Source: a bacterium (GTDB lineage Bacteria; Patescibacteriota; Minisyncoccia; UBA6257; UBA9933). Taken from it: a DNA stretch of 64,000 nucleotides. The stretch lies in assembly GCA_021786355.1 (NCBI GenBank), contig JAJYNK010000009.1, positions 517 through 64,516 on the forward strand, in the 5' to 3' direction. Below the pieces are notes generated by a model. That model was given only the letters and a program-made list of their open reading frames with translations. It was not told where the DNA came from and did no database searches. Made by a program: the position numbers and the translations under genes. Shown in pieces: positions 14,630-56,756 of the stretch (position 1 is its first letter; each line of letters starts with the position of its first letter).

Positions 14630-14708
14630 CCCCGTAGTGAATTTTGACTTTATTAATTTTATAAATTAATGTCGCCTTTGGCGACTACAGTCAAAATCTA
14701 CTATAGTG
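14630..14708. repeat. Hairpin repeat, family H copy 1 (CCCCGTAGTGAATTTTGACT ... AGTCAAAATCTACTATAGTG) with inner hairpin GTCGCC-TTT-GGCGAC
   Basis: Seen in the sequence. Belongs with copies at 14831, 40933, 43802 and 56613. Confidence 0.8.
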
Positions 14709-14830
14709 TTGACTTTTAAATAATTTTATTGTATTATATCTCAATATTTTGGATTAGACAATCCCACACATAAATACTGTGTATGGGACAAACTATCCCA
14801 AAATTTGCTCTTATAAATAGTTTACGTCAA

Positions 14831-14909
14831 CCCGGTAGTGAAGCTTCGGCCGAAATAAATTTTATCCTCCGACGTAACGTCGGAGGAAAGCCGAAGTTCT
14901 ACTACGGGG
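14831..14909. repeat. Hairpin repeat, family H copy 2 (CCCGGTAGTGAAGCTTCGGCC ... GCCGAAGTTCTACTACGGGG) with inner hairpin CCTCCGACG-TAA-CGTCGGAGG
   Basis: Seen in the sequence, immediately upstream of the higher-GC operon starting at 14953. Confidence 0.8.
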
Positions 14910-14952
14910 TCAATAATTCTGATATCTTAATCCTGAAAGGGGGACGACAACC

Positions 14953-15669
14953 ATGGCAGAAGAAAAGAAAGCTGATTTCAGCGCCGGAGAAGTTGGAAAA
15001 GAGCTCGGGATAACGGCAGGAGGTATTGCTGTTTTTGAACTCCTCAGAAAAGCCTGGGGGCTTATGAAGGTGGGGTCAAGAACCGCTGCCGCTGAAGTCA
15101 TTCGCGAAGTCGGGAGCAAGGCGGCCGCGGAAACGGCCAAAAAAGTGCAGGCGAAGATGAGCGATCATTACCGCGCCAAACTTCTTGTTTTTCTACAGAA
15201 GATGGAGTCTTCAACGGAACCGAGGCAGCAGAGCGCGGCAAAAACCATCAGAAAGAGGCAAGAGGACCGACAGTTTTGCCGGCCCCGGTCTTATTCTGAC
15301 GGCGGAAATTATCGACCCGGCGAAGAAAACCTTCTCGTGAATTGCCTCGGAAAAGTTCTAATACTCAAAGAACCTGAGAAAGAAGTAGCGGCAGAGGCGG
15401 CGGCGACAGAAAAAGAAACCATCAATTTCTTCGTCTGGCTCGGCGAACTCCCGCCTCAAGAATTCGACAGCGCGATTGAGTTTCTCAACCATGACATAGT
15501 TATGCAGTGGTTAAGAATGCTCGGCATTCGTTTCAACGAAATATTCGGTATCGTCGGTTCAGAACTACGTCCTTTCAACGATAAATGGGTTAAGTGGCTC
15601 AACAATCGCCGCACAGCACGCGGTCGGAGGACTGTAGAATATCAAAAGGAGGGCCCTCCTCATGCGTGA
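14953..15669 (+). CDS. Hypothetical protein (238 aa) in a higher-GC island
   Basis: GC visibly higher than the backbone. The stop overlaps the next start (ATGCGTGA), which suggests translational coupling. Confidence 0.5.
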   Translation: MAEEKKADFSAGEVGKELGITAGGIAVFELLRKAWGLMKVGSRTAAAEVIREVGSKAAAETAKKVQAKMSDHYRAKLLVFLQKMESSTEPRQQSAAKTIRKRQEDRQFCRPRSYSDGGNYRPGEENLLVNCLGKVLILKEPEKEVAAEAAATEKETINFFVWLGELPPQEFDSAIEFLNHDIVMQWLRMLGIRFNEIFGIVGSELRPFNDKWVKWLNNRRTARGRRTVEYQKEGPPHA

Positions 15670-16612
15670 AACTCTTAGTGAAATACTCCTAACGCTGCGG
15701 CTCATTCTCGACACAGTCATCACCGGCGCCGCGGACGCCGCCGAGGTCCTTGCCTTTGTCAGGGGCGAAAACAGAACCGATCTTGAAATATATCGGATCG
15801 GACTTTCACGGCTCGCGATTGCAGCGGCGCTTCTGCCTATACCAATCCTGCTTCTGGGAATTTTCGGATTCTCGATGTGGATTTCAATTGCGGGACTTAT
15901 TTGGGCGTTCTTCACGATCTTACTCTCTTTGCTGGCCGCGCCGATTGCGTTGATAATCGACGCGGTCTGGCACAGAACAACAGTAGGACTTGGAGAACGT
16001 TATGTTCGATTAACGCTACATGTTATTTTCGCCGAGTTATCGTTCGCAATAATGCTTATAGTCATTCCTATCGAGAAAAGACCTGAGTTGATCCCGTTGC
16101 TACTGCTCTTGGCCCTTATCATTTTTATTGGGACTCGTCTTTTTGGGGGCGCTTTCATCTTTAACGGAAGGGCAATAACGGTTGTTGCATCAATGATTTT
16201 CATCGCAATCGTCATTTCGTTGTTTCTCCCCCGCACAACGGCTCTCGCGAGAACCGCGGCGAGAGGAATCGATAATAATGTCGTTGCAGTATTTTCCTTA
16301 AATTCTCCTACGAAACCAACGGAAATAGGAACCAACCAGAAAATCCTCGTTGGGATGGAATTCCCGATCAAGCCAGGGGAGGATAATTATCTCTTCGCAA
16401 CTTCGGTCAAGGGAAAACGAACCGAGTACAAGTTGGAGGCCAACCAGCCCATCATCATTCGCTCAGCCCAACCCGACGGTTCTTTAAGGGATTTTCGACT
16501 GGGACCCGGAAGGTTTGGCTGGGAGGTTTTAAGAGATCAACAGGCTGGGCAGCTTCGGGTGCGAAGCGAACAGCCTGCGGTTCTCCGAATTATTGACGTG
16601 AACGAAAGTTGA
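15662..16612 (+). CDS. Polytopic membrane protein (about 6 TM helices) with a C-terminal soluble domain, in a higher-GC island
   Basis: Long hydrophobic stretches (LLLGIFGFSMWISIAGLIWAFFTILLSLLAAPIALII, LLLLLALIIFIGTRLFGGAFIF, VVASMIFIAIVISLF) followed by a 110-aa hydrophilic tail. Confidence 0.5.
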   Translation: MRETLSEILLTLRLILDTVITGAADAAEVLAFVRGENRTDLEIYRIGLSRLAIAAALLPIPILLLGIFGFSMWISIAGLIWAFFTILLSLLAAPIALIIDAVWHRTTVGLGERYVRLTLHVIFAELSFAIMLIVIPIEKRPELIPLLLLLALIIFIGTRLFGGAFIFNGRAITVVASMIFIAIVISLFLPRTTALARTAARGIDNNVVAVFSLNSPTKPTEIGTNQKILVGMEFPIKPGEDNYLFATSVKGKRTEYKLEANQPIIIRSAQPDGSLRDFRLGPGRFGWEVLRDQQAGQLRVRSEQPAVLRIIDVNES

Positions 16613-16618
16613 TCTTTG

Positions 16619-16738
16619 CCCCGTTAGAGAAAAGTCGCCGCGAGCGACTGAAGTCGTGCTCTTAGCACGGCGTTCTCTAATGGGGTTTGCCCCGTTAGAA
16701 GTAGGACGCGTACGATGCGTCCGCGACTTCTAACGGTG
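16619..16738. repeat. Two tandem hairpin repeats of family B: CCCCGTTAGAGA...TCTCTAATGGGG (16619-16685) and CCCCGTTAGAAGT...ACTTCTAACGGTG (16690-16738)
   Basis: Each arm pair is complementary apart from single G-T and C-T mismatches. The inner parts hold small hairpins. Confidence 0.75.
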
Positions 16739-16742
16739 TTTG

Positions 16743-16793
16743 CCCCACTTGTACTTCAGCGCAAGAGCGCTGAAGTACAAGTGGGATTTTTTT
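16743..16793 (+). terminator. Terminator in the same hairpin style: CCCCACTTGTACTTCAGCGC-AAGA-GCGCTGAAGTACAAGTGGG followed by T7
   Basis: A 19-20-bp perfect stem plus a T-run ending the island. Confidence 0.8.
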
Positions 16794-17029: not shown

Positions 17030-17413
17030 TTATAAGTTTCCGGCAATTCCTCTTATTGCTGCGACTAGCCCTTTAGCAAGCAAGCCAACCGCGACAGATA
17101 CAAGAGCCCAGAGTATATGATTTCTTGCCGCTTTGGTTTTTGCTTCATCTCCGCCGGAAGTTAAAAACTGAAACGCTCCCCAAACAATAAAAACAACCGC
17201 CAAGGCAATTAATAATCCCAATAAATAATTAGCCACTGTATCTAGCGTATCGTACACATTAGAAAGGCCGGTTATGGGGATATTTCCGGGTTGTCCTTGG
17301 CCTGGCGGAGTAAATATCGCGGCAAACGAAAATACCGGCAACGCGAGCGATAAAATCGCTCCTGAATAAATAATACTTTGTAAAACTTTTTTCATTTTTT
17401 TGTATCGTATCAA
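17030..17413 (-). CDS. VirB2/TrbC-like pilin-family protein A (signal peptide, then two hydrophobic helices joined by TSGGD)
   Basis: YLLGLLIALAVVFIVWGAFQFLTSGGDEAKTKAARNHILWALVSVAVGLLAKGLV is the characteristic two-helix hairpin. Confidence 0.5.
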   Translation of the reverse strand: MIRYKKMKKVLQSIIYSGAILSLALPVFSFAAIFTPPGQGQPGNIPITGLSNVYDTLDTVANYLLGLLIALAVVFIVWGAFQFLTSGGDEAKTKAARNHILWALVSVAVGLLAKGLVAAIRGIAGNL

Positions 17414-17442
17414 TTCGACCTCGACCTTTTTCTTTATATTTA

Positions 17443-17853
17443 TTATAACGTTTGTATTATTCCGTACAACGCGCCGATGATTCCTCGCGCGAGTAAAATT
17501 ACTAATAATCCGATTGCGGCGTATAAAACTGTTTTTTGGCCTTCCTGGAATTTTTTAGGGTCGCCTGACGCGGTCATCATTTTCCAAGCGCCGTAGATAA
17601 CTATTATCACAGCCACAGAAACCGAAACGCCGATAAAATAATCGATTATTTTGGAAAGGACGCTATCAAGAGTCGAGCCGGATCCAAAATAATTAAAAAG
17701 CTGGCCGCTCCCGCCGCTAGCAGAAGGACTTGCTCCAGTTGGCTGACCGCCGCTTGTTGTCGGCTGACCTCCGCTTGTTTCGGCTAATTGATAAAAAGCA
17801 AACAAAGGCGCGACTTTAAGCCAATTCAAAATTTTTTTAATGTTTTTTCTCAT
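17443..17853 (-). CDS. VirB2/TrbC-like pilin-family protein B, with a low-complexity TSGGQPTTSGGQPT repeat
   Basis: DYFIGVSVSVAVIIVIYGAWKMMTASGDPKKFQEGQKTVLYAAIGLLVILLARGII has the same architecture as A and C. An imperfect 21-bp tandem repeat in the DNA encodes SGGQPT twice. Confidence 0.5.
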   Translation of the reverse strand: MRKNIKKILNWLKVAPLFAFYQLAETSGGQPTTSGGQPTGASPSASGGSGQLFNYFGSGSTLDSVLSKIIDYFIGVSVSVAVIIVIYGAWKMMTASGDPKKFQEGQKTVLYAAIGLLVILLARGIIGALYGIIQTL

Positions 17854-17994
17854 CCCAGTACTACAACTTCGATTATTTTTGTGTTAATTCTCGAGGTTGT
17901 GATTTATTGATTATTCTTATTTTTATTACCCAATATCAACTTAATTCAGGTTCTCAAAAATTTATAGAGAATGTATCGAAGTTGTAGTACTGGG
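17854..17994. repeat. 20-bp perfect inverted repeat CCCAGTACTACAACTTCGAT (17854-17873) / ATCGAAGTTGTAGTACTGGG (17975-17994) flanking a 101-bp AT-rich segment. The left arm abuts the ATG of pilin gene B.
   Basis: Arms verified base by base. The start codon of B (reverse complement of CAT 17851-17853) is immediately adjacent. Confidence 0.85.
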
Positions 17995-18026
17995 CATTTT
18001 TAAAATTATAAAAAATTTTTAACTGC

Positions 18027-18377
18027 TTAGCAAGGAAATTTATTCCATGGACCTAAACTGCCGCCGACAAGAACTTTCAAAACCAAATCAACTATGAACC
18101 CGGCTAAAAGAAGAATGGCTATGCCGATTAAGATAGTTCTTATTTTTCCAACCGCTTCTTTGTACTTTCCGGGATCTCCGGCAGAAGTCATTATTTTAAA
18201 CCCCGCCCAAACCAAAGCGCCGAGCGCCAAAACAAACGCGAAAACAATGACAAAATTATAAATATTTTGAGCTAACTGGAATAAATCGCAAATAGTACAT
18301 TCGAGCTTAGCCGTTCCCGGACCGCACTGAACTAAAGGGGTCAAAGCCGCATTGGCAATATTAACTAAATTAATCAT
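18027..18377 (-). CDS. VirB2/TrbC-like pilin-family protein C
   Basis: FVIVFAFVLALGALVWAGFKIMTSAGDPGKYKEAVGKIRTILIGIAILLLAGFIV. Confidence 0.5.
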   Translation of the reverse strand: MINLVNIANAALTPLVQCGPGTAKLECTICDLFQLAQNIYNFVIVFAFVLALGALVWAGFKIMTSAGDPGKYKEAVGKIRTILIGIAILLLAGFIVDLVLKVLVGGSLGPWNKFPC

Positions 18378-40803: not shown

Positions 40804-40932
40804 CATAAATTGCCGGGGGTGGGCGCTTTTTTTGTGATTGCGGGTTTTTTGAGTAATATTTGCTAACCCCTTGACACCAACAACCGCCATGATAAAATGG
40901 ATTATTATCGCTTAACAGGCGATTTTTTGTTT

Positions 40933-41009
40933 GCCCTGTAGTGAATTTTGGCTTGATAAAATCTGATTTTATTCGCTTTTGGCGAAGACAGCCAAAATCT
41001 ACTACTGGG
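40933..41009. repeat. Hairpin repeat, family H copy 3 (CCCTGTAGTGAATTTTGGCT ... GCCAAAATCTACTACTGGG)
   Basis: Seen in the sequence. A half-copy (ATATGCCCGGTTAGTGAAAAAACGATTGATT) follows at 41024-41059. Confidence 0.8.
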
Positions 41010-41023
41010 TTGAAAAATCAAAA

Positions 41024-41059
41024 ATATGCCCGGTTAGTGAAAAAACGATTGATTTCTAC
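41024..41059. repeat. Left member of a 36-bp inverted-repeat pair (AAAATATGCCCGGTTAGTGAAA[A/C]AACGAT[T/C]GATT). The partner lies at 43690-43725 in reverse orientation.
   Basis: About 33 of 36 bases identical after reverse-complementing. The pair flanks a 2.7-kb segment. Confidence 0.7.
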
Positions 41060-41180
41060 AGCTTTTTTCCAACCAAACCGTCGCTGGGCATAAATTAACT
41101 AAAAACATAATTTTAGGTAAAACAGAGGCGAAACAAATTAAAATCTTATTTTAATTTAGATCGTTTTTCTACTACCGGGT

Positions 41181-41696
41181 ATGGGTAAACGTCTAGCTTT
41201 TTTACTTGCTTTAACCAGTATAAACCTGGTTTTTGCCGCAGAGGAGCTTACATTCGCAAACCCTAAAACTAACGGGTTTGACAGTAAAAAATTGGCTTCG
41301 AGTGAATCTACAGTGATGATTTTTGACGGCGCAGTGGCGTCAAAATCAGCTCTGGCAAACACAAAACAGCTGAAAACCGCGATTTCTTATGAAGTTGCGG
41401 ATGTGGATAGAGTAACCGTAACCGGTTATTCCAGCACCGAATCCGAAACCGACGAAACGCCGTTTATAACCGCTACCGGCAAATATGTTTTCCCGGGAGT
41501 GGCGGCCAGCAATGTCCTGCCTATCGGAACCAAATTCCGCTTGCCAAGTCTCTTTGGCGACAGAATTTTCGTTGTCGAAGACAGAATGCATTCAAGATAT
41601 AACGGCAAAAAATGGGTAGATGTCTGGTTTGACAGTCAGGACAAAGCTCTAAAATTTGGCAAGAGATTTTCATCGATTGAAATTTTAGAGGGCTAA
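41181..41696 (+). CDS. Secreted 3D-domain (MltA/RlpA-like double-psi barrel) protein
   Basis: Signal peptide MGKRLAFLLALTSINLVFA. C-terminal segment VTVTGYSS..DETPFITATGKYVFPGVAASNVLPIGTKFRLP..VVEDRMHSRY..VDVWFDS. Confidence 0.6.
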   Translation: MGKRLAFLLALTSINLVFAAEELTFANPKTNGFDSKKLASSESTVMIFDGAVASKSALANTKQLKTAISYEVADVDRVTVTGYSSTESETDETPFITATGKYVFPGVAASNVLPIGTKFRLPSLFGDRIFVVEDRMHSRYNGKKWVDVWFDSQDKALKFGKRFSSIEILEG

Positions 41697-42729: not shown

Positions 42730-43563
42730 TTACTTCGGTTTTATAACTATAAATCTTTTCTTCCACCCTTTTTTAAATTCCTCTGTTGTGGCTTTTCTCT
42801 CAATAAGATTTGGATTGTTTATGTCGGGATCGGCGAATAAAACAATGTCGCCGTCTATCCCAAAAATAACCACCAAATGTCCGCCGTTTTGCGGATTTAG
42901 ATTCTTATATATGGAAGCTATGACCGGCCCGTTTTTTAACTCTTCAATCATTCGTTCAAAAGCGGTTTCCGTTTCTTCTTTCGCGAAATCAAATCTATTG
43001 CCCCTTAAACCAAAGTGTTTTACTGCGGCGTCTATTAATCCTTGATGCAGCCACCCTATGTTTTCTACATAAGCTTTGTTTTTGACCCCGTCGGAAATTA
43101 TAAAGTCAACTAAAAATTCGGAAAGTTTTTTCATCTTATCTTCGTCTACGTTTTTTGTCGGCCAAGCTCTTTCCAAGTGGTATAGTATACTATACCACTT
43201 GACTGAGTCGTGTTCGTCTAATAATTCGTTGAGTTTGTTTGTTTCGTTGCTTATCCAGTTTGCGTCATTTACGCTAGAAATAATCTTTGAATCTTTTAAA
43301 AGTTTTTTAATCGCTTTAACTACGTTTGGATCTTTTTTTGAAACACAATAAATCACAATCATCGCCAAAGAAGCGGGACCGCAGACTCTTTTTGCCCAAA
43401 ATTCGTTGCAGCCGTCGCCTTCGCAAAGCCCCTGTCCGTCCGGCAGGCGGGCATACCCGCTTTTGCCGATATCCAAATGCTGAGAAATGTTAACCGGAAG
43501 ATGGTGGCGAATTAAGAATTTTTTTTCCCGTCTTTTGTCCTGTTTTTTATTTATCGTATTCAT
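42730..43563 (-). CDS. Papain-like cysteine peptidase, C39-like family (Peptidase_C39_2-like)
   Basis: Cys box RVCGPASLAMIVIY and a C-terminal GGHLVVIFGIDGDIVLFADPD His/Asp region. The CDS contains a 26-bp perfect palindrome encoding KWYSILYHL. Confidence 0.5.
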   Translation of the reverse strand: MNTINKKQDKRREKKFLIRHHLPVNISQHLDIGKSGYARLPDGQGLCEGDGCNEFWAKRVCGPASLAMIVIYCVSKKDPNVVKAIKKLLKDSKIISSVNDANWISNETNKLNELLDEHDSVKWYSILYHLERAWPTKNVDEDKMKKLSEFLVDFIISDGVKNKAYVENIGWLHQGLIDAAVKHFGLRGNRFDFAKEETETAFERMIEELKNGPVIASIYKNLNPQNGGHLVVIFGIDGDIVLFADPDINNPNLIERKATTEEFKKGWKKRFIVIKPK

Positions 43564-43771
43564 GCCCGGTAGTAGAACAACGATTTATAAATCAAATATT
43601 TCTAAATATTTGATTTATTCCGTTTATTTAAATTAGATTTGTTTATTTATAAATATCTTTATATTTTACCCTTCAATGATTTAATAACCAGAAAAGGAAT
43701 CGATCGTTGTTTCACTAACCGGGCATATTTTGTTAAATCTACTTGATATTGAAATTATTGCAATATTTTAC

Positions 43772-45971
<2,200 letters not shown>

Positions 45972-46102
45972 AAAAGAATGCCCCTGCCTGAGACCAGGCA
46001 GGGGCTTAAAAAAATGAAATATTGCCGTAAATACCTACCCTCCTTTCGGTGTGCTAATTAAAACTTAGCACAGTATACAAAATTTGTCAATACCCTTAAA
46101 AT

Positions 46103-47842
46103 GTGGTATTTTATAACCCTATTATGGCTTCCGCAACAGTAGAAAATTTAATAAAAATCTCCCGGGAAAAACGATTAACAAAATCAGTTGACGCGGCGCT
46201 TATTCAAAAAGCGTTTTCTTTTTCCAAGTCAGCGCACCAAGGACAAAAAAGAAAGTCCGGCGAGGAATATTTCAATCATTCGTACCAAACAGCCCTGCAA
46301 CTGGCCGAATGGGGACTAGACTCAAACACAATTTCAGCCGGCCTGCTTCATGATGTTGCCGAAGATACGCTTAAAACTCTTGATGATATAAAAAATACTT
46401 TCGGCGAAGAAATAGTTTTTTTGGTAAACGGCGTTACAAAGTTGGGTCGATTAAAATACCGAGGAACCCAAAGACAGGTGGAAAATTTAAGAAAAATGTT
46501 TCTGGCAATCAGCGAAGACCTTCGCGTGGTTTTAATAAAACTCGCGGACCGTCTTCATAATATGAAAACTCTCGGCGCGGTGCCTTTGCAAAAGCAAAAA
46601 AGAATAGCTCTCGAAACCGATGAAATTTACGCGCCTTTGGCATACCGGCTTGGAATGCAAAACCTGGCGGGCGAATTGGAAGATTTGTCCTTCCCATACC
46701 TTCATCCGCAGGAATACAAGTGGCTTAACGAAAACGTAAAAGAAAAATATGAAGAGCGGTTGAAGTATTTGGAAAAAGTAAAAATCGTTGTCAATGATTT
46801 ATTAAAAAAAATTGGTATTTCTCCGGCAGGAATAGATTTTCGCGCCAAACGCTACAGCAGTTTGTACAAAAAACTTATTCGCAACGAAATGAATTTGGAA
46901 CAGATTTACGACCTGGTCGCGTTCAGAATAATCGTTTCGTCCGTTGAAGAGTGTTACGCGACGCTGGGCGCTATCCACCAAATGTGGCCGCCGCTTCCGG
47001 GAAAAATAAAAGACTATATCGCTTTGCCAAAACCGAACGGCTACAGAAGCCTGCACACTACGGTTTTTTGCGTTGACAATAAAATTGTGGAATTTCAAAT
47101 CAGAACAAAAGAGATGCACGACGAAGCGGAAAACGGCATTGCCGCCCACTGGGCCTACCATGAAGCGAAAGAAAAAAACCTCGAAAATAAACCTGTTTTC
47201 ACCAGTAGAAAAGAACTGGAATGGGTTAATCAGCTAAAAAATTGGCAGGAAGAATTTTTAAATTCCGGAGAGTCTTTAGAGGCTCTTAAAATAGATTTTT
47301 TTAAAGACCGGATTTTTGCCATCACGCCGAAAGGGGAAGTGATCGACTTACCGGCCGGGTCCACGCCGGTTGATTTTGCCTATTCAATACACAGCAAAAT
47401 AGGGGACAATTGCGTCGGCGCGAAAATAAACAATAGAATTGTTCCGCTGGATTATCAAATTCAATCGGGCGATATGGTTGAAATACTTATTCAAAAAAAC
47501 AAAAAACCTTCCGAGTCGTGGGTGAGATTCGTGAAAACCGATATTGCCAAGAAAAGGATTCGTTCTTCTCTTAAAAAAGATCACTTGCCCGGAAGCCGAG
47601 AGCGTCTGCGCACGGAAATCAAAATCATCGCCGAAGACAGAATTGGCTTGTTAAAAGACATAACAAGCATTGTTTCTCGATCTCACATTAATATAAGTAA
47701 TGTTTTAACTGCCCCGACTTCGCCGATTTTAACGTCTATAAAATTTCTTTGCGACACAAACAACAAAGACAAAATCGAGAAAGTAATTTTGAAACTAAAA
47801 AAAATAAAAGAAATTAAGCAGATCGGCTCTAAACTTATTTAA
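46103..47842 (+). CDS. RelA/SpoT-homolog (p)ppGpp synthetase/hydrolase (start possibly MASATVEN at 46124)
   Basis: HD hydrolase motif LHDVAEDT, synthetase region (YKKLIRNE...DLVAFRIIV) and a C-terminal ACT-like tail. Confidence 0.8.
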   Translation: MVFYNPIMASATVENLIKISREKRLTKSVDAALIQKAFSFSKSAHQGQKRKSGEEYFNHSYQTALQLAEWGLDSNTISAGLLHDVAEDTLKTLDDIKNTFGEEIVFLVNGVTKLGRLKYRGTQRQVENLRKMFLAISEDLRVVLIKLADRLHNMKTLGAVPLQKQKRIALETDEIYAPLAYRLGMQNLAGELEDLSFPYLHPQEYKWLNENVKEKYEERLKYLEKVKIVVNDLLKKIGISPAGIDFRAKRYSSLYKKLIRNEMNLEQIYDLVAFRIIVSSVEECYATLGAIHQMWPPLPGKIKDYIALPKPNGYRSLHTTVFCVDNKIVEFQIRTKEMHDEAENGIAAHWAYHEAKEKNLENKPVFTSRKELEWVNQLKNWQEEFLNSGESLEALKIDFFKDRIFAITPKGEVIDLPAGSTPVDFAYSIHSKIGDNCVGAKINNRIVPLDYQIQSGDMVEILIQKNKKPSESWVRFVKTDIAKKRIRSSLKKDHLPGSRERLRTEIKIIAEDRIGLLKDITSIVSRSHINISNVLTAPTSPILTSIKFLCDTNNKDKIEKVILKLKKIKEIKQIGSKLI

Positions 47843-48170
47843 CTAAAAAAATTTCCTTTGAGATTATTTCAATTACTTCTTTTGCTTCGAGTTTAAAAAT
47901 TTTTGCCGCTGGAGAAATTAAAATATCAATTCCTTTTTTAGAGGTATTTTTTTCTTGATTTTTTCCTTGACGGAAATATTCAAAAATTATTCTTTTAACT
48001 CGGTTCCGCCGAACTGAACTTTTTTCTGTTTTTTTGCTTATGACTAAGCCGACGCGATCAAATGGAAGTTGATTGGCCAAATACCTGAAATAAAAATTGG
48101 AGGTTTTGATAATTTTCGGTTTTTTTGATAAAAATTCCTTAACCGGCAGACGAAATTTCTTTGCCAACAT
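47835..48170 (-). CDS. rnpA: Ribonuclease P protein component
   Basis: SKKTEKSSVRRNRVKRI matches the RnpA RNR motif region. 111 aa, immediately downstream of rpmH. Confidence 0.8.
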   Translation of the reverse strand: MLAKKFRLPVKEFLSKKPKIIKTSNFYFRYLANQLPFDRVGLVISKKTEKSSVRRNRVKRIIFEYFRQGKNQEKNTSKKGIDILISPAAKIFKLEAKEVIEIISKEIFLVK

Positions 48171-48185
48171 TGGTTTTTGAAAAAA

Positions 48186-48320
48186 TTAAGCCGAAATTCT
48201 TTTTCTTCCTTTTGCTCTTCTTCTAGAAAGCGTTCTTTTGCCGCCGGAGGTTTTTGATCTCTTTAAAAATCCGTGCGAGCGAGCCCTTTTTCTTTTTTTG
48301 GGTTTATAGGTTATAGACAT
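48186..48320 (-). CDS. rpmH: 50S ribosomal protein L34 (44 aa; not in the ORF track because it is under 60 aa)
   Basis: Hand translation of the minus strand gives [44 protein letters not shown], matching the L34 consensus (..KRTFQPS..RKR.HGFR.RM.T..GR.VL..RR.KGR..L). Confidence 0.85.
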
Positions 48321-48497
48321 TATTTATTATTGTAGTAAAATCTTTTTAAAAATACAAGGGGGGGGAGGATGGTTTTTCTTATGTTTTAAAAGCGTTTTAA
48401 AAGTTATCAACACTTAATTCACATTTCTATCTTTTGCCTGCATTTGACATCGCTTTTTTTACTTATAAACTTGAGTTATTAGTTTTACTTCTTTTTT
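48321..48497. other. Origin-proximal AT-rich region upstream of dnaA (candidate oriC part 1)
   Basis: Classic rpmH-rnpA / dnaA-dnaN arrangement. Contains TTATCAACA (one mismatch to the DnaA box) at 48394-48402, a duplicated GTTTTAAAAG, and a G8 tract followed by GGAGG ATG and a 6-codon mini-ORF. Confidence 0.55.
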
Positions 48498-49856
48498 ATG
48501 GATCACGAACAAGTTTGGAAACAGGTTTTAGCAGAGGTTGAAATTCAATTATCCAAGCCCAATTTTGTTACGTGGTTTAAAAACAGCCGCTTAATTGAAA
48601 AAAACGACGACGGTCGAGTCATTGTCGGGCTCGGAAATAATTTCGCCAAGGAATGGGTTGAGAATAAATACCATAAATTGCTTAGCGACATTTTTTATTC
48701 ACTTGATTCGTCGGTAAAAAAGGTGGAATACGCTGTTTTGACATTGCCTGCCGAACAAAGACCGCAACCTTATAGCCGAGCGCCCGCGGTTTCAAGCCAA
48801 CCGGCGCTTATAGAGGTAAGAATCGATCCGGAAACGAATCTTCATCCTCGTTATAATTTTAAATCTTTTATTGTTGGGTCTTCAAATGAACTTGCTTACG
48901 CCGCTGCGATGGGGGTTGTTAAAGAGGTTGGATCAAAATATAATCCTCTTTTTATTTACGGGGGCACGGGACTTGGTAAGACCCATCTTCTTCAAGCGAT
49001 CGGCAATGAAATTAAATTTAATTACAAAGAGCGGCTTAAAACAAAATATGTTCCTTCGGAAAAATTCGTAAACGATATTATTTCGGGAATTCGTAATAAA
49101 AGGATGGAGGATATAAAAGACAAATATCGAAGCGTCGACGTTTTAATTATTGACGACATCCAATTTATCGCCGGCAAAGAAAGAAGTGAGGAAGAATTTT
49201 TCCACACTTTTAATGTTTTATACGATAGCGGCAAACAAATAATAATCTCGTCAGATAGACCGCCAGCGGCAACACCAATTTTAGAAGAGCGCCTAAGATC
49301 TCGTTTTAGCGGGGGAATGATCGCGGATATTGGTTTTCCGGATTATGAAATGAGGGTGGCCATAATAAAATCCAAAATTCGAGAAAAAGGAATGGGCCTG
49401 GAAGATGCTTTATGCTCCTTAATAGCCTCTAAAATACAAAGAAATATAAGGGAATTGGAAGGGGTTTTGAATAAGATCGTTTTTTACCAAGAAGCTAAAA
49501 ATATAGAGCCGAGCCATGAATTAATTAATGAAATAATAGAAAAAAACATCAAACAAACATTTAAAAACGTTTCTCCGACTCAAATAATAAAAGCGGTTTC
49601 CGGTTTTTTTGAAATTACTGAAAAAGAAATTTCCGACCACTCGCGCCGAAAAGAATTAGTGGAGCCAAGACAGATTGCGATGTATTTATTGAAAGATATT
49701 TTGGGGATGTCCTATTCTGATATTGGGAATAAGTTGGGGAAAAGAGACCACTCAACGGTTATTCACGCGTGCGAAAAGGTCTCAAAAAAGATTAATAATG
49801 ACCAGAAATTAAACCAAAAAATTATTTTAGTTAGAGAAATCATCGAGAAGAATTAA
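48498..49856 (+). CDS. dnaA: Chromosomal replication initiator protein DnaA
   Basis: AAA+ Walker A GGTGLGKTHLLQAIGNE, DnaA signature and a C-terminal HTH (..IAMYLLKDILGMSYSDIGNKLGKRDHSTVIHA). Confidence 0.95.
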   Translation: MDHEQVWKQVLAEVEIQLSKPNFVTWFKNSRLIEKNDDGRVIVGLGNNFAKEWVENKYHKLLSDIFYSLDSSVKKVEYAVLTLPAEQRPQPYSRAPAVSSQPALIEVRIDPETNLHPRYNFKSFIVGSSNELAYAAAMGVVKEVGSKYNPLFIYGGTGLGKTHLLQAIGNEIKFNYKERLKTKYVPSEKFVNDIISGIRNKRMEDIKDKYRSVDVLIIDDIQFIAGKERSEEEFFHTFNVLYDSGKQIIISSDRPPAATPILEERLRSRFSGGMIADIGFPDYEMRVAIIKSKIREKGMGLEDALCSLIASKIQRNIRELEGVLNKIVFYQEAKNIEPSHELINEIIEKNIKQTFKNVSPTQIIKAVSGFFEITEKEISDHSRRKELVEPRQIAMYLLKDILGMSYSDIGNKLGKRDHSTVIHACEKVSKKINNDQKLNQKIILVREIIEKN

Positions 49857-49973
49857 TTTATCAACAGAATTTAAACATTATTTTTTTTGATTTTTTTATT
49901 TAATTAAATGAATTTTTGCGCTTATCCACAAAATTTCATTCCTCTACTATAACTACAATTTATATTTATTATT
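49857..49973. other. dnaA-dnaN intergenic region with a perfect DnaA box TTATCCACA (49922-49930); candidate oriC part 2
   Basis: Consensus 9-mer seen directly, embedded in very AT-rich DNA. Confidence 0.6.
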
Positions 49974-51089
49974 ATGAAATTAATAGTATTGAAAACTAAT
50001 TTAAGAGATGGGTTGGGTATTGTTGGAAAAATAAATTCAGAAACGCCATCACTCCCAATCTTAAAAAATTTTTTATTGGAAACAGTTGATAATCAAATTA
50101 AAATTTCCACAACTAATTTAGAACTGGCGATTACCGGGTATGTTTCCGGAAAAATAATTGAAAACGGAGGATTAACTATTCCGTTGAATATTTTTTCGGC
50201 TATTATTAACAATCTTCAAAGCGAAAGAATTGAGTTAGAAACCGAAAAAGATAATTTAATAATTAAAACGGAAAATTACGAAGCTAAACTTCAAGGAATA
50301 AAAAAAGAAGACTTTCCGCTTTTGCCAAAAGTGGAAAACAGTGAAAATTATATTGAGATTCAAAACTCTATTCTTAAAAAAACTCTAGCGTTGGTTATGA
50401 GCGCCGCCCAAGCTTCCAACGCGAGACCGGTTTTGAATAGTATTTTATTAGATTTCCAAACAAGTTTCATAAAGTTAGCCGCCACCGACGGTTTTAGATT
50501 GGCGGAGCAAACAATAAGCGAGAGTTATTATAAAACAAATCTTGAAAAAAACATAAAAATGGTTATCCCTCTAAAAACAATCCAAGAATTAATAAGAATT
50601 ATTCAAGACGAAGAAAACGGCAATATTAGGGTTTATTTCGATAATAATTTAATAATTTTTAAAAACAACAAATATGAGGTTATTTCAAGATTAATAAACG
50701 AAGAATTTCCAAATTACGACCCAATCATACCGAAGGTTATAAACACTGAAATAATAGTAAATAAAAACCAACTAATAAGCGCGCTGAAGTTAACTGGGGT
50801 TTTTAGCGACAGATTAAACGAAATAAAAATAAACATCCCAAAAGAGAGGAAGAATATCGAAATTTATTCATCCAACTCGTTTGTGGGAGAAAATAAATAT
50901 TTAATTCCGGCGAAAATAAAAGGAGAGCCGCTGGAAATAGTTTTTAATTGGCGGTTTATAACCGATGGAATAAAAAATTTAGAAACCGAAAATGTGTTTG
51001 TGGGGTTAACAAGCGATAAAAGCCCTGCGCTTGTAAAACCAGCAAGCGACTCCAATTATTTTTATATCGTTATGCCGATTAAGGCGTAA
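49974..51089 (+). CDS. dnaN: DNA polymerase III beta sliding clamp
   Basis: 371 aa. Position after dnaA plus a three-domain clamp-like pattern. Confidence 0.85.
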   Translation: MKLIVLKTNLRDGLGIVGKINSETPSLPILKNFLLETVDNQIKISTTNLELAITGYVSGKIIENGGLTIPLNIFSAIINNLQSERIELETEKDNLIIKTENYEAKLQGIKKEDFPLLPKVENSENYIEIQNSILKKTLALVMSAAQASNARPVLNSILLDFQTSFIKLAATDGFRLAEQTISESYYKTNLEKNIKMVIPLKTIQELIRIIQDEENGNIRVYFDNNLIIFKNNKYEVISRLINEEFPNYDPIIPKVINTEIIVNKNQLISALKLTGVFSDRLNEIKINIPKERKNIEIYSSNSFVGENKYLIPAKIKGEPLEIVFNWRFITDGIKNLETENVFVGLTSDKSPALVKPASDSNYFYIVMPIKA

Positions 51090-51095
51090 GAAAAT

Positions 51096-53198
51096 CTATT
51101 GTGTCCAAGAGCGAACTGGCGTTTCCCAATTTAGAAACTGAGGATCGTCATTTGGATTAGTGGGGGGTGGGCCAAGTGGGTCGTTTCTGTTTACGTAAAA
51201 AAGAATATTGTGGAATTGAGAATTGATATTGTACTGACCGTTCAGTATTGGTTTGGATTGGATTATAGGGTCGGGATTGTTAAATGGTTCATTAGGAAAT
51301 TTACTTATAACTTGTTTCATAAACGAACTCCAAATTGGGAGAGCCGCTAGTATGCTTCCAGCGCTTTTTTGCATTGGTTCTCTGTGGTTGTTTCCGGCCC
51401 AAACGCCAACAGCTAAAGAAGGCGTGTATCCAAAAGTCCAGGCGTCAACGTAGTCGTTGGTGGTTCCGGTTTTGAGCGCGACTTCTCTGTCGTCGAAAGT
51501 TGTCAGGTTGTAGCTGCTCTGATAAAGAGGTCGGCGGGCTTCGTTATCCGAAAGCACATCGTTTATAAGTCGAGCGTATTGAGAGTCTATGGCTTGGATT
51601 GGCTTATCAACAAAACTTTCCATGATCCTTCCTTTGGAATCTTTGATGTTTAAAATTATCGTTTGTTGATGTCGCGTTCCTTCTTGGGCAAAAACTGAAT
51701 AAGCGCCAACAAGTTCGGTAAGTTTTATTTCTCCGCCGCCGAGCACAAGCGAGAGTCCGATTCTATCGGCGTCGTTTAGAGTCGTGATGCCGAAATCTTC
51801 CGCTGTTTTTATGACATTGTTCAATCCGGCTAAGTATAAAACTTTTACCGCCGGCACGTTTATTGATTGGGCAAGGGCATTTCTTAAATTAACCGGCCCG
51901 CGGAAAATATGGTCGTAATTTTGGGGGTGATAACAAGGCGGGTTGCTTATTTGATAATTTATATTCGATAACGGGCACGACGGGTTGTTGGACGCGAATT
52001 CGGTTGGCAAATCAAAAACAACAGTGTCCGGAGAGTAACCTTCTTTAAATGCCGTTGCATAAACTAATGGTTTTATCGAAGAGCCTGGTTGGCGGACGCC
52101 TTGGCTTGCAACATTAAAATTGCCGTCTATAGATTTATCGAAATAATTTGCCGAGCCTACTAAGGCCAGAATTTGACCAGTTTTCGGGTCTTCGGCAACT
52201 AAAGCGGCATTTTTCCCTTTGTAGAGTTCAGCGTTTCGGCTGGCTCCTTCTCTTACGACCTTGTCTGCTGTCTGTTGTAGATCCCAATCAAGGGTTGTGA
52301 TAACTTCGAAACCGTTGGTATTTAAAGCTTCTTCCCCGTACTTATCTATTAAATAATCCCTAACCATCATTACGAAGTGGGGGGCTTTTATGCTGCCGAG
52401 GTTTTGTTGAGTAAATTTAGGCGTTGTTTTTTGAGCTAATTCTTTTTCTTTTTCGGAAATAAACCCCATTTTTTGCATTTGATCGAGAATATGATTTTTT
52501 CTCGCTAAAAGATCGTCACTGTGGTTGCCCCAAGGAGAATAATAAGGGGGTGATTTTGGCAGAACCGCCATTGTGGCGGCCTCGGCGAGAGTCAAATCTT
52601 TGGCTGATTTAGCCAAATAAAGCTGCGATGCGGATTCTATGCCGTAGGTATTCGATCCGTAGGAAATCTGGTTTAAATATAAATTCAAAATAGCATCTTT
52701 CGAATAATATTTTTCTATCCAGTAAGTTAAAATAAGCTCTTTGATTTTTCTCTGCAAAGTTTTTTCGTTTGTCAGAAAAGCATTTTTCGCCAATTGCTGG
52801 GTTATGGTCGAGCCTCCTTGGACAAATTTTCCGCTAAGGATATTTGCGAAAACCGCACGGGCGATTCCTTTCCAATCAAGGCCGGCGTGCTTGTAAAAAT
52901 TTTGATCCTCCGCGGCTATGGTCGCATTTCTCATGTTGTCGGGGATTTCGGTCGATGAAAGGATTGTGCGTCTGCCTTGGCCGCTTATTTCGTAAAGCAA
53001 AATTTTTCCGGTGCGGTCATAAATTTTTGTGGACTGGGCCACTTGCCACGCAACGGCTTTTTCGGGGTTGGGCAAGCTTTTGGCAATTTTTGCCGTTTCA
53101 AATAAGCCCCAAACCGCAATGGCCAAGAAAATAATAAAAAGAACTCCAGAAATTTTTAAAACTTGGTAAAGTTTTTTATTTTTTACCGGAAGAGACAT
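51096..53198 (-). CDS. Class A penicillin-binding protein (PBP1A-type transglycosylase/transpeptidase)
   Basis: N-terminal TM segment, glycosyltransferase motifs (EDQNFYKHAGLD, GGSTITQQLAKN) and a transpeptidase SxxK region. Confidence 0.85.
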   Translation of the reverse strand: MSLPVKNKKLYQVLKISGVLFIIFLAIAVWGLFETAKIAKSLPNPEKAVAWQVAQSTKIYDRTGKILLYEISGQGRRTILSSTEIPDNMRNATIAAEDQNFYKHAGLDWKGIARAVFANILSGKFVQGGSTITQQLAKNAFLTNEKTLQRKIKELILTYWIEKYYSKDAILNLYLNQISYGSNTYGIESASQLYLAKSAKDLTLAEAATMAVLPKSPPYYSPWGNHSDDLLARKNHILDQMQKMGFISEKEKELAQKTTPKFTQQNLGSIKAPHFVMMVRDYLIDKYGEEALNTNGFEVITTLDWDLQQTADKVVREGASRNAELYKGKNAALVAEDPKTGQILALVGSANYFDKSIDGNFNVASQGVRQPGSSIKPLVYATAFKEGYSPDTVVFDLPTEFASNNPSCPLSNINYQISNPPCYHPQNYDHIFRGPVNLRNALAQSINVPAVKVLYLAGLNNVIKTAEDFGITTLNDADRIGLSLVLGGGEIKLTELVGAYSVFAQEGTRHQQTIILNIKDSKGRIMESFVDKPIQAIDSQYARLINDVLSDNEARRPLYQSSYNLTTFDDREVALKTGTTNDYVDAWTFGYTPSLAVGVWAGNNHREPMQKSAGSILAALPIWSSFMKQVISKFPNEPFNNPDPIIQSKPILNGQYNINSQFHNILFYVNRNDPLGPPPTNPNDDPQFLNWETPVRSWTQ

Positions 53199-53258: not shown

Positions 53259-53268
53259 ATTAAATTTA

Positions 53269-55345: not shown

Positions 55346-55366
55346 AACGTCTCCTTTTAGTATGGG

Positions 55367-55816
55367 TTATCGATCGGATAGGTAAAATATTTGTGGTTGG
55401 CCGTCGAGGTGGATGTAAAAATTGAAAGTCCGTATCGTGTCCCAACTTCCGTAATATTGCGTCAAACGCTCAACACGCACTCGAACGGTGTGTTTCGCAA
55501 TGTCTTCGCGCCCTGAGTTTATGGGAAACGCAAAGCACTTCGATTTACCCGGAGGTAGATAAAATTTATATCGGTCATCAATCGTAATGTGAAGTTTGCG
55601 ATCTGTTGCGCTTGTAAAAGTTACAAGAGAAGGATCGCCGGCCACGGAATAGAAAGGATCGTCGGCTTTGATTGTCTGAAGAGGCGGATGAGTCGGTTCT
55701 ATTTGCGACGGATATTTTTTTATGACAAGCTGGGGGATTTCGGTTGCCGCGCATTCCGCGACTACTACGAGTAAAATGAAACAGAAAAACAGAGCGCAGG
55801 TTTTTGGAAGTTTCAT
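55367..55816 (-). CDS. Secreted hypothetical protein (signal peptide) in a higher-GC block
   Basis: MKLPKTCALFFCFILLVVVAECAA signal peptide. Confidence 0.45.
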   Translation of the reverse strand: MKLPKTCALFFCFILLVVVAECAATEIPQLVIKKYPSQIEPTHPPLQTIKADDPFYSVAGDPSLVTFTSATDRKLHITIDDRYKFYLPPGKSKCFAFPINSGREDIAKHTVRVRVERLTQYYGSWDTIRTFNFYIHLDGQPQIFYLSDR

Positions 55817-56376
55817 CGGAATAAGCTCCTTACGAAGTTCACGGCATCAGTTGCTATTCCGGTTGTTTGAATGTCTACAGTAGGCGATTGATAGTCGTAT
55901 TGCGGGATGTCGCCGGTGTAAATACTTACGCCCCAACCCCAATCTTTCCGCGTGTATTGGCGGTCGGAAAAGGCGCGCGGATCATTTCCAACCCAAACTC
56001 CGGCAGTGTATCGGTAAAGAGAAATGAGTTTGCGACTGGCCGGAAATATATAGTTCTGGTAGTAAAACGTTTCTATTTCCAATTTCCAACTGCCCTTGGG
56101 AAGAGCCGTAATATATACCCTTGTCGGAGCTCTGCCGTTGAAGGTGAGTGCCGGACTTTCGCCGCGGTCGCTCCATTCCATAAAGAGTTCGTTTGTGGTG
56201 GCGTTGATGAATTTGATTGTGCACGATGCCGCGCCTTCCAAAATCACCACGCCTTTTGCGGGGTCGGTGTTGAACTTGGGCCACATTTCGGCCTGGTTTA
56301 TCGGACGCGTGCCGGCGCACCCCAAAACAACTACCAGAAATCCTAAAATAAGCGCTTTTTTCGTCCTGGTTTTCAT
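55813..56376 (-). CDS. Putative lipoprotein (signal peptide with lipobox LGCAG) in a higher-GC block
   Basis: MKTRTKKALILGFLVVVLGCAGT. G-rich RBS AGAGGGGGGTG upstream. 4-nt overlap with the next gene. Confidence 0.45.
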   Translation of the reverse strand: MKTRTKKALILGFLVVVLGCAGTRPINQAEMWPKFNTDPAKGVVILEGAASCTIKFINATTNELFMEWSDRGESPALTFNGRAPTRVYITALPKGSWKLEIETFYYQNYIFPASRKLISLYRYTAGVWVGNDPRAFSDRQYTRKDWGWGVSIYTGDIPQYDYQSPTVDIQTTGIATDAVNFVRSLFR

Positions 56377-56572
56377 TTCGCACCCCCCTCTTTTGTCTTC
56401 TTTGTGATTTTCCAGCGTTTTTCAAATCATTTTCAGGCTATGTAAAGTTGGGAAAGACCAAAATTATTACCATACAATATCAAAAACACAATAATTTGTC
56501 AATTATAGGTGTTTTGATTTAAGAAAGAAAAGGAAAGGGAAAATTAAAAAATTTTTTGAGATTTAGTCAATT

Positions 56573-56601
56573 TTGATTTTAATTTTTTTAACACCTATAA
56601 T
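56573..56601 (+). promoter_or_regulatory. Sigma70-type promoter TTGATT-N17-TATAAT upstream of dnaE
   Basis: -35 at 56573-56578, -10 at 56596-56601, exact 17-nt spacer. Hairpin H5 starts about 12 nt downstream. Confidence 0.55.
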
Positions 56602-56612
56602 GAGAGCGATAT

Positions 56613-56756
56613 GCCCCGTTAGTGAAGCTTCGGCCGATTAAATTTTTATTGATAAATAGTTAACCAAAAATAACCAAACTTTAAAAAAATGAAAGAGTCG
56701 TTGATAATAAAATTTAATTTGCCTTCGGCAAAAAAGCCGAAGCTCTACTACGGGGT
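56613..56756. repeat. Hairpin repeat, family H copy 5 (GCCCCGTTAGTGAAGCTTCGGCC ... GGCCGAAGCTCTACTACGGGGT), forming the whole dnaE 5' leader. Its 3' end abuts the dnaE ATG.
   Basis: Seen in the sequence. Inner hairpin TGCC-TTCG-GCA. About 100 nt of AT-rich spacer. Confidence 0.8.

Follow-up and report, generated by a model that had tools for sequence, protein, structure and literature searches.

The window, which is the whole 64-kb stretch of DNA analysed here and belongs to a Candidatus Wolfebacteria-like (Patescibacteria/CPR) chromosome, carries several copies of a long hairpin repeat (hereafter family H). They raise the question of whether selection on their pairing reflects a structured RNA, a structured DNA element or a MITE-like mobile hairpin, all of which had been proposed from the sequence by a first-pass annotation. 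Covariation alone makes family H look like structured RNA, and the elements confuse the prediction of promoters, 5'-UTRs and small RNAs in genomes of the CPR bacteria, which are tiny and usually described as poor in mobile DNA. Our comparative analyses indicate that family H very probably consists of small non-autonomous mobile DNA elements of the MITE/palindromic-repeat type, native to Patescibacteria (CPR).

Copies of family H in the window

Seven copies, c1 to c7, were found in the window and are given here with their covariance-model E values:

14630-14708, + strand: c1, 79 bp, 3' terminus degenerate, adjoining the -35 box TTGACT of a promoter TTGACT-17-TATTAT (E 1.2e-7)
14831-14909, + strand: c2, 79 bp, in the 5' leader of ORF 14953-15669; TCAA duplicated at 14827-14830 and 14910-14913 (E 1.6e-10)
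40934-41009, + strand: c3, 76 bp; TTG duplicated at 40931-40933 and 41010-41012 (E 1.2e-11)
41029-41179, + strand: c4, 151 bp, GTTAGTGAA variant, at the start codon of ORF 41181-41696; TATG duplicated at 41025-41028 and 41180-41183 (E 4.6e-5)
43565-43723, - strand: c5, 159 bp, GTTAGTGAA variant, at the start codon of the C39-peptidase-like ORF 42730-43563 (- strand); flanked by TATG and CATG (E 0.033)
43802-43871, + strand: c6, 70 bp, inside TATAATA, the -10 box of ligA; AATA duplicated at 43798-43801 and 43872-43875 (E 9e-13)
56614-56755, + strand: c7, 142 bp, GTTAGTGAA variant, at the dnaE start codon; TATG duplicated at 56610-56613 and 56756-59 (E 1e-7)

The five full copies described in the first-pass annotation were placed correctly to within 1 nt. 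Its two half-copies, at 41024-41059 and 43690-43725, are instead the 5' arms of the long copies c4 and c5, whose 3' arms directly abut the start codons of the two ORFs concerned. The outer arms that it considered common to all copies are degenerate at the 3' end of c1, where CTATAGTG stands in place of the CTACNGGG of the other copies. Three pairs of window copies have an inner stem in common (c2/c7, c1/c3 and c4/c5), and copies resembling c7 and c4/c5 occur at the ATGs of other genes in other metagenomes (L154, L159 and L177).

The elements range from 70 to 160 bp and have no coding capacity. One end is CCCNGTAGTGAA and the other TCTACTACNGGG, both invariant in 85-120 copies, which is partly due to ascertainment, although the CCCN lay outside the search pattern. 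The interior usually makes a Y by folding into two small hairpins, or is a longer AT-rich insert, and the loops of the short copies are about 30 bp. The arm motifs are in excess: GTAGTGAA occurs five times against 0.73 expected and TCTACTAC six times against 0.37, and 0 of 100 shuffles reached either count. Every copy also folds more stably than shuffled sequence, with z-scores of -5.5 to -7.4 as RNA and -4.7 to -7.7 as DNA.

Stem pairing and the structured-RNA alternative

The two arms form a stem of 21 bp, in which the outer 12 positions are fixed in sequence, while positions 13-21 differ between copies but remain complementary. Among 85 copies, 91.3% of stem cells are paired, compared with 74.7% in shuffles (0 of 500 match) and 35-48% in slid controls; double changes number 284 against 104 expected, with strong covariation at position 4 and positions 13-21. 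The compensatory variation noted in a handful of copies thus holds in the larger sample, and the claims that these are not random palindromes and that their pairing is under selection hold as well. A covariance model trained on the same 85 copies, three from the window (c2, c3 and c6) and 82 from other genomes, recovered all seven window copies, including the four on which it was not trained (c1, c4, c5 and c7).

The bulge that had been predicted for every copy is replaced by a different feature. The arms are equal in length, and GTAGTGAA stands opposite GTAGTAGA with a GA/AG swap, which produces a fixed tandem mismatch, G.T and then A.C, at stem positions 10-11; the universality of this asymmetry is weakly tested by the GTDB and metagenome sample, which was picked by a pattern that fixes the arms. 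An extra bulging T is confined to the three long window copies (GTTAGTGAA).

Selection on pairing would also be expected if the copies were duplicates of a functional module that acts in cis as a structured RNA, for instance as a regulator in the 5'-UTR or as a signal for processing. The strong covariation is in line with this explanation, as are the occurrence of UUCG and GNRA types among the interior loops, the position of all seven window copies upstream of genes with the TCTACTAC arm on the gene side, and a bias in orientation of 16 to 4 among start-codon insertions. However, covariation alone cannot tell RNA from single-stranded or cruciform DNA, and orientation relative to genes across genomes is unbiased (31 to 33). 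In the variable part of the stem G.T and A.C mismatches are equally frequent, many copies precede the -35 box and so are not part of the downstream transcript, and the empty sites and target duplications described below are also contrary to an RNA module. At Rfam 15 gathering thresholds only tRNAs pass and no family matches the copies; sub-threshold matches over the copies were dismissed as chance similarity to microRNA hairpins. As there is no orientation bias, no excess of G.U over A.C and no Rfam match, family H is better regarded as MITE-like, which is the part of the earlier proposal that survives, and a dedicated structured RNA appears improbable. RNA effects of those copies that are transcribed may be a secondary property.

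Empty sites and target duplications

Each of the seven window copies is missing at the orthologous site in one or more close relatives, whose DnaE is 88-90% identical. Where synteny is preserved, the empty site holds a single copy of the 3-4 bp that flanks the window element on both sides (e.g., TATG at dnaE). In L140 and L141 the TTGACT box is present without c1 upstream, and the c2 site also lacks the element, reading GTTAATAATT in L140, one base off the target sequence. The c3 site is empty in L137 and L138 (GTTGGAAAAA), as is that of c4, of which L139 retains a degenerate ortholog. Relatives have one CAT(A) within an 83-bp spacer at the c5 site and an uninterrupted TATAATAAAACAAAAATGGAC at the c6 site, and the dnaE locus reads ...TATAATGAAAGCGATATGAAGTTTG without c7 at six loci examined in four relative genomes. 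The reverse case was also observed, in which L140 has a copy with a TCAA duplication and the window has one TCAA. Among 137 elements, exact flanking repeats of 4 bp were found in 57, of 5 bp in 22 and of 3 bp in eight, compared with one in a shifted control; across genomes the duplications are mostly TNNA or TNNNA, 4-5 bp in length, with TATG also occurring. Thus, copies of family H have been gained at new sites, and their insertion duplicates 4-5 bp of the target.

These duplications also bear on the Xer-type tyrosine recombinase gene (13224-14186) that lies 450 bp from c1, as the copies might be its recombination sites, either bounding invertible promoter segments or resembling attC. The interior hairpins of c6 are in flipped order relative to c1-c3 with the arms unflipped, and some interiors contain promoter-like boxes, both of which would be in line with such sites. 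However, target duplications of varied sequence are not predicted by site-specific recombination, the loops of the short copies, at only about 30 bp, argue against an invertible segment, and there are no cassette arrays, in which attC sites form the 3' ends of cassettes beside intI. The recombinase itself scores as a generic XerC/D/A, far below integron-integrase cut-offs, and has also been conserved where c1 and c2 are missing from relatives; moreover, family H runs opposite to the attC core order RYYYAAC...GTTRRRY, with GT(T)AG at the 5' side and CTAC at the 3' side. We therefore consider recombination sites very improbable indeed.

The distribution of the elements is both wide and patchy. 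A pattern scan of GTDB yielded at least 118 loci with the same termini, almost all in lineages labelled Patescibacteria, and nearly all of the matches listed also have a complementary stem and the CCCN, which the pattern left unspecified. The same 12-bp termini are found from Saccharibacteria to Parcubacteria. Ten matches in viral contigs were rejected as chance occurrences inside coding sequence. Compared to the seven copies in the 64-kb window, about 180 kb of relatives searched with the covariance model contained one family H copy (in L140). Presence or absence of the elements separates strains and close species.

Gene starts, comparable systems and a candidate mechanism

Copies are placed exactly in register with a -35 box, a -10 box or the ATG of a leaderless gene (dnaE, rpsP, serS and others). 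A full sigma-70-type promoter was found beside 20 of 138 copies with the first base of its -35 box right at the edge of the element, against 0-3 at shifted offsets, and in TTGA-type duplications the next base is C in 18 of 21 cases, compared with a background of 15%. At start-codon insertions, the Pfam domains of the downstream proteins begin at residues 1-6, indicating that the adjacent ATG is the true start. Because the target is duplicated, a -35 box (TTGAC), -10 box or start codon that is hit survives intact on the gene side, so that even first-codon insertions persist in essential genes that are leaderless. Such genes tolerate a hairpin of 70-160 nt between promoter and ATG. The exact register with promoter boxes could represent insertions that survived in very short intergenic spacers rather than targeting. 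Such tolerated hairpins offer a concrete way to probe the start of transcription and translation in rarely cultivated organisms.

At c7 the native dnaE promoter, TTGATT-17-TATAAT (56573-56601), now precedes a mini-ORF, ATG CCC CGT TAG, and the upstream TATG copy at c4 likewise starts a mini-ORF, ATG CCC GGT TAG. Genes hit at the ATG might be expressed in three ways, judging from the sequence: from a -10-like box that faces outward in the AT-rich interior, through cleavage of the 21-bp RNA stem in the manner of RNase III to leave a short leader, or by re-initiation after the three-codon mini-ORF. A forward internal -10-like box is present in 9 of 11 start-codon copies compared with 23 of 126 other copies.

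Family H shows four of the features by which MITEs are recognised: small size (<~300 bp), terminal inverted repeats, a target duplication of characteristic length and insertion polymorphism. With MITEs derived from DDE insertion sequences (RUP and those of IS630, IS5 and IS1380 type), it further shares its non-coding nature, a copy number that varies patchily from one relative to another and the presence of several subfamilies in one genome; it differs in a complementarity that extends well beyond the terminal 12 bp and in a mismatch pair conserved within the repeat. The CC(C) ends and the AT-rich duplication of 4-5 bp are no more than a lead towards a possible IS1380/piggyBac-like origin. No transposase was found among the ORFs of the first 24.5 kb of the window, no parent insertion sequence with family H termini in those ORFs or in loci L003-L139, and no ORF enclosed by a pair of arms 0.4-4 kb apart in the same loci.

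Correia elements of Neisseria (CREE/NEMIS), for which we know of no cognate transposase, are also small (~100-150 bp), non-coding repeats with terminal inverted repeats and a target duplication, with many copies beside genes and possible promoter elements at their ends. If co-transcribed, both would give long RNA hairpins, which in the Correia case RNase III binds or cleaves, as outlined in PMC2649163. This resemblance is functional only, as sequences and termini are unrelated (Correia elements have a 26-bp inverted repeat), the duplication is TA rather than 4-5 bp, and Correia elements are found in one genus whereas family H is superphylum-wide. The covarying inner stem, the Y-shaped interior and the exact register with -35, -10 and ATG belong to family H alone. 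Rickettsia palindromic elements (RPEs) are likewise palindromic mobile repeats of a reduced genome that touch essential genes; however, they insert in frame inside coding sequence, whereas family H inserts at the first codon and duplicates the ATG, leaving the protein unchanged.

REPs, palindromes of 20-40 bp one end of which bears GTAG (or CGTC) as an unpaired tag (PMC3733652), suggest a further explanation, namely that each element is a REPIN-like doublet that a RAYT (HUH tyrosine transposase) encoded in single copy moves through single-stranded DNA. GTAG/CTAC lies near both ends and faces outward, as it does in REP dimers joined head to head, and the whole folds into a large hairpin whose spacer contains small stem-loops; pairing kept without strand bias, long persistence across a lineage and several families per genome also have parallels there (PMC3733652). 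In family H, however, GTAG is paired with CTAC inside CCCN/NGGG instead of forming an unpaired tag, the halves are not palindromes by themselves, and copy number differs sharply between close relatives. Most REPs lie downstream of genes, whereas family H lies at promoters and start codons. Family H also has a clear target duplication of 4-5 bp, whereas PMC3733652 makes no mention of one for REPs, and neither the ORFs in the first 24.5 kb of the window nor those beside tandem arrays include a RAYT/Y1 HUH gene. A REPIN origin is thus quite improbable.

Returning to a MITE-like family H, its elements would be moved by an enzyme supplied in trans, whose cut would be staggered by 4-5 bp and which would depend on the terminal 12 bp as well as on the stem folded as a cruciform or as single-stranded DNA. 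Dependence on the folded stem would account for the retention of pairing in the absence of any strand bias, and tandem arrays would arise from re-insertion into the regenerated target. To our knowledge, the hairpin-dependent mobile systems (IS200/IS605, REPs with RAYT and integron attC) produce no target duplication, nor do we know of one reported for REPs, and in classical MITEs of DDE transposases the interior does not have to pair. The mechanism proposed here would thus unite properties so far not observed in one system, and hairpin dependence with target duplication would point outside the textbook classes. A bolder reading, which we advance tentatively and think unlikely as a whole, is that family H and its sister families are CPR-wide, structure-dependent transposons that home to the -35 TTGAC, the -10 box and the +1/ATG of leaderless genes. 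The duplication would then regenerate the landmark, the stem with its G.U/A.C mismatch would be cut (RNase III-like) or bypassed in the transcript, and the enzyme would be of an undescribed kind, recognising a hairpin or cruciform yet cutting in a staggered manner. If so, first-codon insertion would be harmless in essential leaderless genes (dnaE, rpsP, serS, secE-like).

The sister families are represented in the window by the following elements:

16619-16685 and 16690-16738, + strand: two adjacent sister-family elements with termini CCCCGTTAG...
17854-17994, - strand: sister-family element with termini CCCAGTACTACAACTTCGA, at the ATG of the pilin-like ORF 17443-17853 (- strand)

The adjacent pair has TTTG between its members and on both flanks and lies upstream of a terminator (16743-16785), which stands alone at this site in L140 and L141. 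The element at 17854-17994 was recovered by the family H covariance model (E 3.8e-5) and is absent in L141. Its family also occurs at the rpsP ATG in L003 and L142, and in the ~180 kb of relatives the model gave one sister-family match, in L003. In total, the 64 kb of the window contain at least 12 hairpin insertions of several related families.

Family H copies in the window and the anatomy of their stem

The five full copies of the family H hairpin were all found where the first-pass annotation had placed them. Extra arm matches assigned its supposed half-copies to the 5' arms of two long copies, c4 and c5, and the window thus holds seven copies (c1 to c7, numbered by position).

Family H copies in the window
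c1, 14630-14708: imperfect duplication TTTA / TTGA, against the -35 box TTGACT
c2, 14831-14909: duplication TCAA, in the 5' leader of ORF 14953
c3, 40934-41009: duplication TTG, upstream of c4
c4, 41029-41179, + strand: duplication TATG, at the start codon of ORF 41181
c5, 43565-43723, - strand: flanks TATG / CATG, at the start codon of a C39-peptidase-like ORF
c6, 43802-43871: duplication AATA, inside the ligA -10 box TATAATA
c7, 56614-56755, 142 bp: duplication TATG, at the dnaE start codon

Both arm octamers are over-represented: GTAGTGAA occurs five times in the window (0.73 expected) and TCTACTAC six times (0.37 expected), and neither count was reached in 100 shuffles. Every copy folds far more stably than shuffled sequence, with z-scores of -5.5 to -7.4 as RNA and -4.7 to -7.7 as DNA, and is predicted to form a long stem that ends in one or two small hairpins. 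A covariance model built from 85 copies (c2, c3 and c6, with 82 from other genomes) recovered all seven window copies; in approximately 180 kb of relatives' sequence, it found one family H copy (locus L140) and one match to a sister family (locus L003).

The two arms are of equal length, the 5' arm CCCNGTAGTGAA standing opposite CCCNGTAGTAGA, the reverse complement of the 3' arm. The conserved bulge proposed earlier is in fact a GA/AG swap, which creates a G.T and an A.C opposition at stem positions 10-11; symmetric counterparts of these asymmetric arms would read GTAGTGAA...TTCACTAC or GTAGTAGA...TCTACTAC. The three long copies of the window carry an extra T in the arm (GTTAGTGAA). In the alignment of 85 copies from many genomes, the ungapped stem spans 21 positions, of which 1-3, 5-9 and 12 are invariant; changes at position 4 and at positions 13-21 are compensatory. 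This compensatory variation, already suspected from the window alone, was borne out statistically: 91.3% of cells were paired versus 74.7% in shuffles (none of 500 as high), double changes numbered 284 versus 104 expected, and slid controls gave 35-48% pairing.

Insertion at empty sites and distribution across genomes

DnaE homologues assign the window to Candidatus Wolfebacteria, within the Patescibacteria, and the window's sequence was found again in several metagenome assemblies. In four relatives with a DnaE 88-90% identical, the syntenic region upstream of dnaE reads ...CACCTATAATGAAAGCGATATGAAGTTTGTCC and carries no element, whereas the window reads ...TATAATGAGAGCGATATG, then the 142-bp element, then TATGAAGTTTGTCC. 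Copy c7 is a precise insertion at the dnaE start codon, with TATG duplicated. Comparison with the relatives' sites showed that c1 to c6 are likewise insertions; c4 also exists in a degenerate form at locus L139 and is absent from L137 and L138. The converse case was observed in L140: a long family H copy flanked by duplicated TCAA occupies a site at which TCAA occurs only once in the window. Among 137 elements, exact flanking direct repeats of 4 bp were found in 57, of 5 bp in 22 and of 3 bp in eight, compared with one in a shifted control. The duplicated target is mostly TNNA or TNNNA (TCAA, TTGA, TAGCA, TGATA, TAAA), and TATG and CAAG/CTTG were also seen. Family H is a hairpin element, mobile and non-coding, whose insertion duplicates 4-5 bp; of the alternatives first offered for it, the MITE-like one was correct, and a structured RNA as its primary identity was not supported. 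Tandem arrays, present at L165 (five copies), L107 and L089 and as the window pair 16619-16738, would fit repeated re-insertion into a regenerated target.

A scan of GTDB genomes with the pattern GTAGTGAA-N40-70-TCTACTACNGGG returned at least 118 loci. Among the matches listed, almost all have CCCN, which lies outside the pattern, and a complementary inner stem, and nearly all are from Patescibacteria (candidate phyla radiation, CPR), including Nomura-, Zambryski-, Nealson-, Wolfe-, Yonath-, Yanofsky-, Moran- and Uhrbacteria, Kazan, Saccharibacteria and others; the few without CCC or a hairpin are from unrelated taxa. All ten matches on viral contigs were rejected as coding-sequence coincidences lacking both CCC and a hairpin. 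A metagenome scan with the long T-variant added about two dozen true copies. In our literature search, no account of comparable elements from CPR bacteria came to light.

Register with promoters and start codons

The placement of copies within spacers is not random. In 20 of 138 copies, the element boundary coincides exactly with the start of the -35 hexamer of a complete sigma-70-type promoter (12 at the 5' arm, eight at the 3' arm), versus 0-3 at shifted offsets, and in another 26 copies a -10-like hexamer lies no more than 3 nt from the boundary. In TTGA-type duplications, the next base is C in 18 of 21 cases (background, 15%). The 3' arm was itself considered as a -10 box and rejected, since it matches TATAAT poorly and has no A at -11.

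At least 20 copies lie at the start codon of a gene with a -10 hexamer 6-9 nt upstream, a spacing that marks the gene as leaderless. The genes include dnaE, uvrB, seryl-tRNA synthetase, a class II Asp/Asn/Lys-type synthetase, cofactor-independent phosphoglycerate mutase and an S16 gene, and the Pfam domains of these targets begin at residues 1-6, indicating that the adjoining ATG is the real start. An upstream ATG providing an in-frame N-terminal extension was rejected because the frames are inconsistent. The TCTACTAC arm is nearest the ATG in 16 start-codon copies and the orientation is reversed in four, a bias found only among start-codon insertions. In 9 of 11 start-codon copies, versus 23 of 126 others, a forward -10-like hexamer precedes the ATG by 27-48 nt. 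The extra T of GTTAGTGAA was examined as a start-codon marker acting through an in-frame TAG; no general rule emerged, as metagenome T-variants also occur at TTGA, CTTG, CAAG and ATAA.

Within the window, dnaE, ligA and the C39-peptidase-like and pilin-like genes seem to have no leader or almost none: their -10 hexamer ends 6-9 nt short of the ATG, and they lack a Shine-Dalgarno sequence (regions 56573-56613, 43727-43801 and 17995-18020). A GGGGGA Shine-Dalgarno sequence does precede others, ORF 14953 among them.

Because the target is duplicated, a -35 box, -10 box or ATG struck by an insertion remains whole on the gene side. Tolerance at start codons may arise through one or more of three routes suggested by sequence features: an outward promoter inside the element (c7 contains a weak promoter-like site); cleavage of the 21-bp RNA stem near its central mismatch by RNase III, a gene for which lies at 62693-63379 according to precomputed Pfam matches; or re-initiation past the mini-ORF ATG CCC NGT TAG, which is present in c4, c5 and c7.

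Nature of the element, related families and neighbouring features

A strand-specific RNA as the selected entity is opposed by several observations: orientation relative to flanking genes in co-directional spacers is unbiased (31 co-oriented, 33 anti-oriented), G.T/T.G and A.C/C.A oppositions are equally frequent in the variable stem, and many copies lie upstream of the -35 box. We favour the view, from these sequence patterns, that pairing is needed in the DNA, as a cruciform or a single-stranded intermediate. Rfam contained no family matching family H; a gathering-threshold scan of the whole window and E-value scans of copy-rich regions returned only tRNAs and chance microRNA-like matches. 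No link between orientation and replication direction was seen, six + strand copies spanning both sides of the GC-skew minimum near dnaA.

The element would be mobilised in trans, by an enzyme that requires the folded stem as well as the fixed terminal 12 bp. Among loci L003-L139, arm pairs separated by 0.3-4 kb never framed an ORF with matching duplications, and no transposase or RAYT was found in 20 ORFs from the window's first 24.5 kb or beside the tandem arrays of L165 and L107. The facing pair c4/c5, 2.4 kb apart, was rejected as an autonomous element since relatives carry the same genes there without elements. A Xer-type recombinase next to c1/c2 was rejected as the mobiliser, being of a generic type and conserved in relatives lacking these copies.

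The nearest functional analogue is the Correia element of Neisseria, which has small inverted repeats, can give rise to promoters at its ends and forms an RNA hairpin that is bound or cleaved by RNase III (PMC2649163). Family H shares an outward GTAG, a doublet architecture and long persistence with GTAG-tagged REPs/REPINs (PMC3733652), but its tag is paired, neither half forms a palindrome, and it duplicates its target. The integron attC model fails, and the inverton model is disfavoured, on core-site order, context and duplications. Family H is notable for its conservation across the whole superphylum, for the exact register it keeps with promoter landmarks and with start codons of leaderless essential genes, and for combining an apparent hairpin dependence with target duplication.

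Sister hairpin families with different termini were also found.

Other hairpin families
Second family, CCCCGTTAG...CTAACGGGG: 16619-16685, 16690-16738 and 38161-38209
Third family, CCCAGTACTACAACTTCGA, symmetric arms: 17854-17994 (- strand), at the ATG of a pilin-like gene; at the rpsP ATG in L003 (19287-19425) and L142 (12973-13107)
Fourth family, CCCCCACACCAAA...TTTGGTGTGGGGG: 5965-6068 and 39529-39666, the latter with a TTTA/TTTA duplication

The second-family neighbours at 16619-16738 are both flanked by TTTG, and L140 and L141 lack them; in L008, another locus (22051) holds a near-identical element, and a further one lies at a TTGACA box in L137. The CCCAGTACTACAACTTCGA element at rpsP occurs in both the window's species and a relative of 90% identity, indicating long retention. 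A tandem array built from another hairpin unit (GGGAACTACGAGGCGAGACCTCGTAGGTG...) adjoins an array of minimal 34-nt family H hairpins in L107 (7211-7560); its spacers are identical, and it is therefore not a CRISPR array.

Several other features of the window were recorded. A strong promoter, TTGACA-16-TAAAAT preceded by a TG, and an intrinsic terminator no more than about 10 nt after it make up a unit at 40871-40930; this unit, which may be a very small transcript or attenuator, is conserved in L137-L139, and its -35 box is struck by other hairpin elements in L137 and L138. The non-coding leader of about 90-100 nt at 14738-14826, between the promoter TTGACT-17-TATTAT and ORF 14953, may be a cis-regulatory RNA: it contains self-complementary stretches (GGATTAGACAATCCC..., CACACATAAATACTGTGTATGGG) and is conserved in both L140 and L141, although it has no Rfam match. 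Cumulative GC skew reaches its minimum near 43-44 kb, ORFs 48498-49856 (452 aa) and 49974-51089 (371 aa) match the relatives' dnaA and dnaN in size and synteny, and the stretch from about 43000 to 51100 probably contains the replication origin. A tRNA-Ile with anticodon TAT, uncommon in bacteria, is encoded at 3193-3265. A free-standing LAGLIDADG homing-endonuclease ORF (5031-5534, - strand) adjoins a UPF0102/NERD-type nuclease ORF (5567-5944), and three small ORFs in tandem at 17030-18377 (- strand), encoding type IV secretion pilin (TrbC/VirB2-like) domains, are conserved in relatives.
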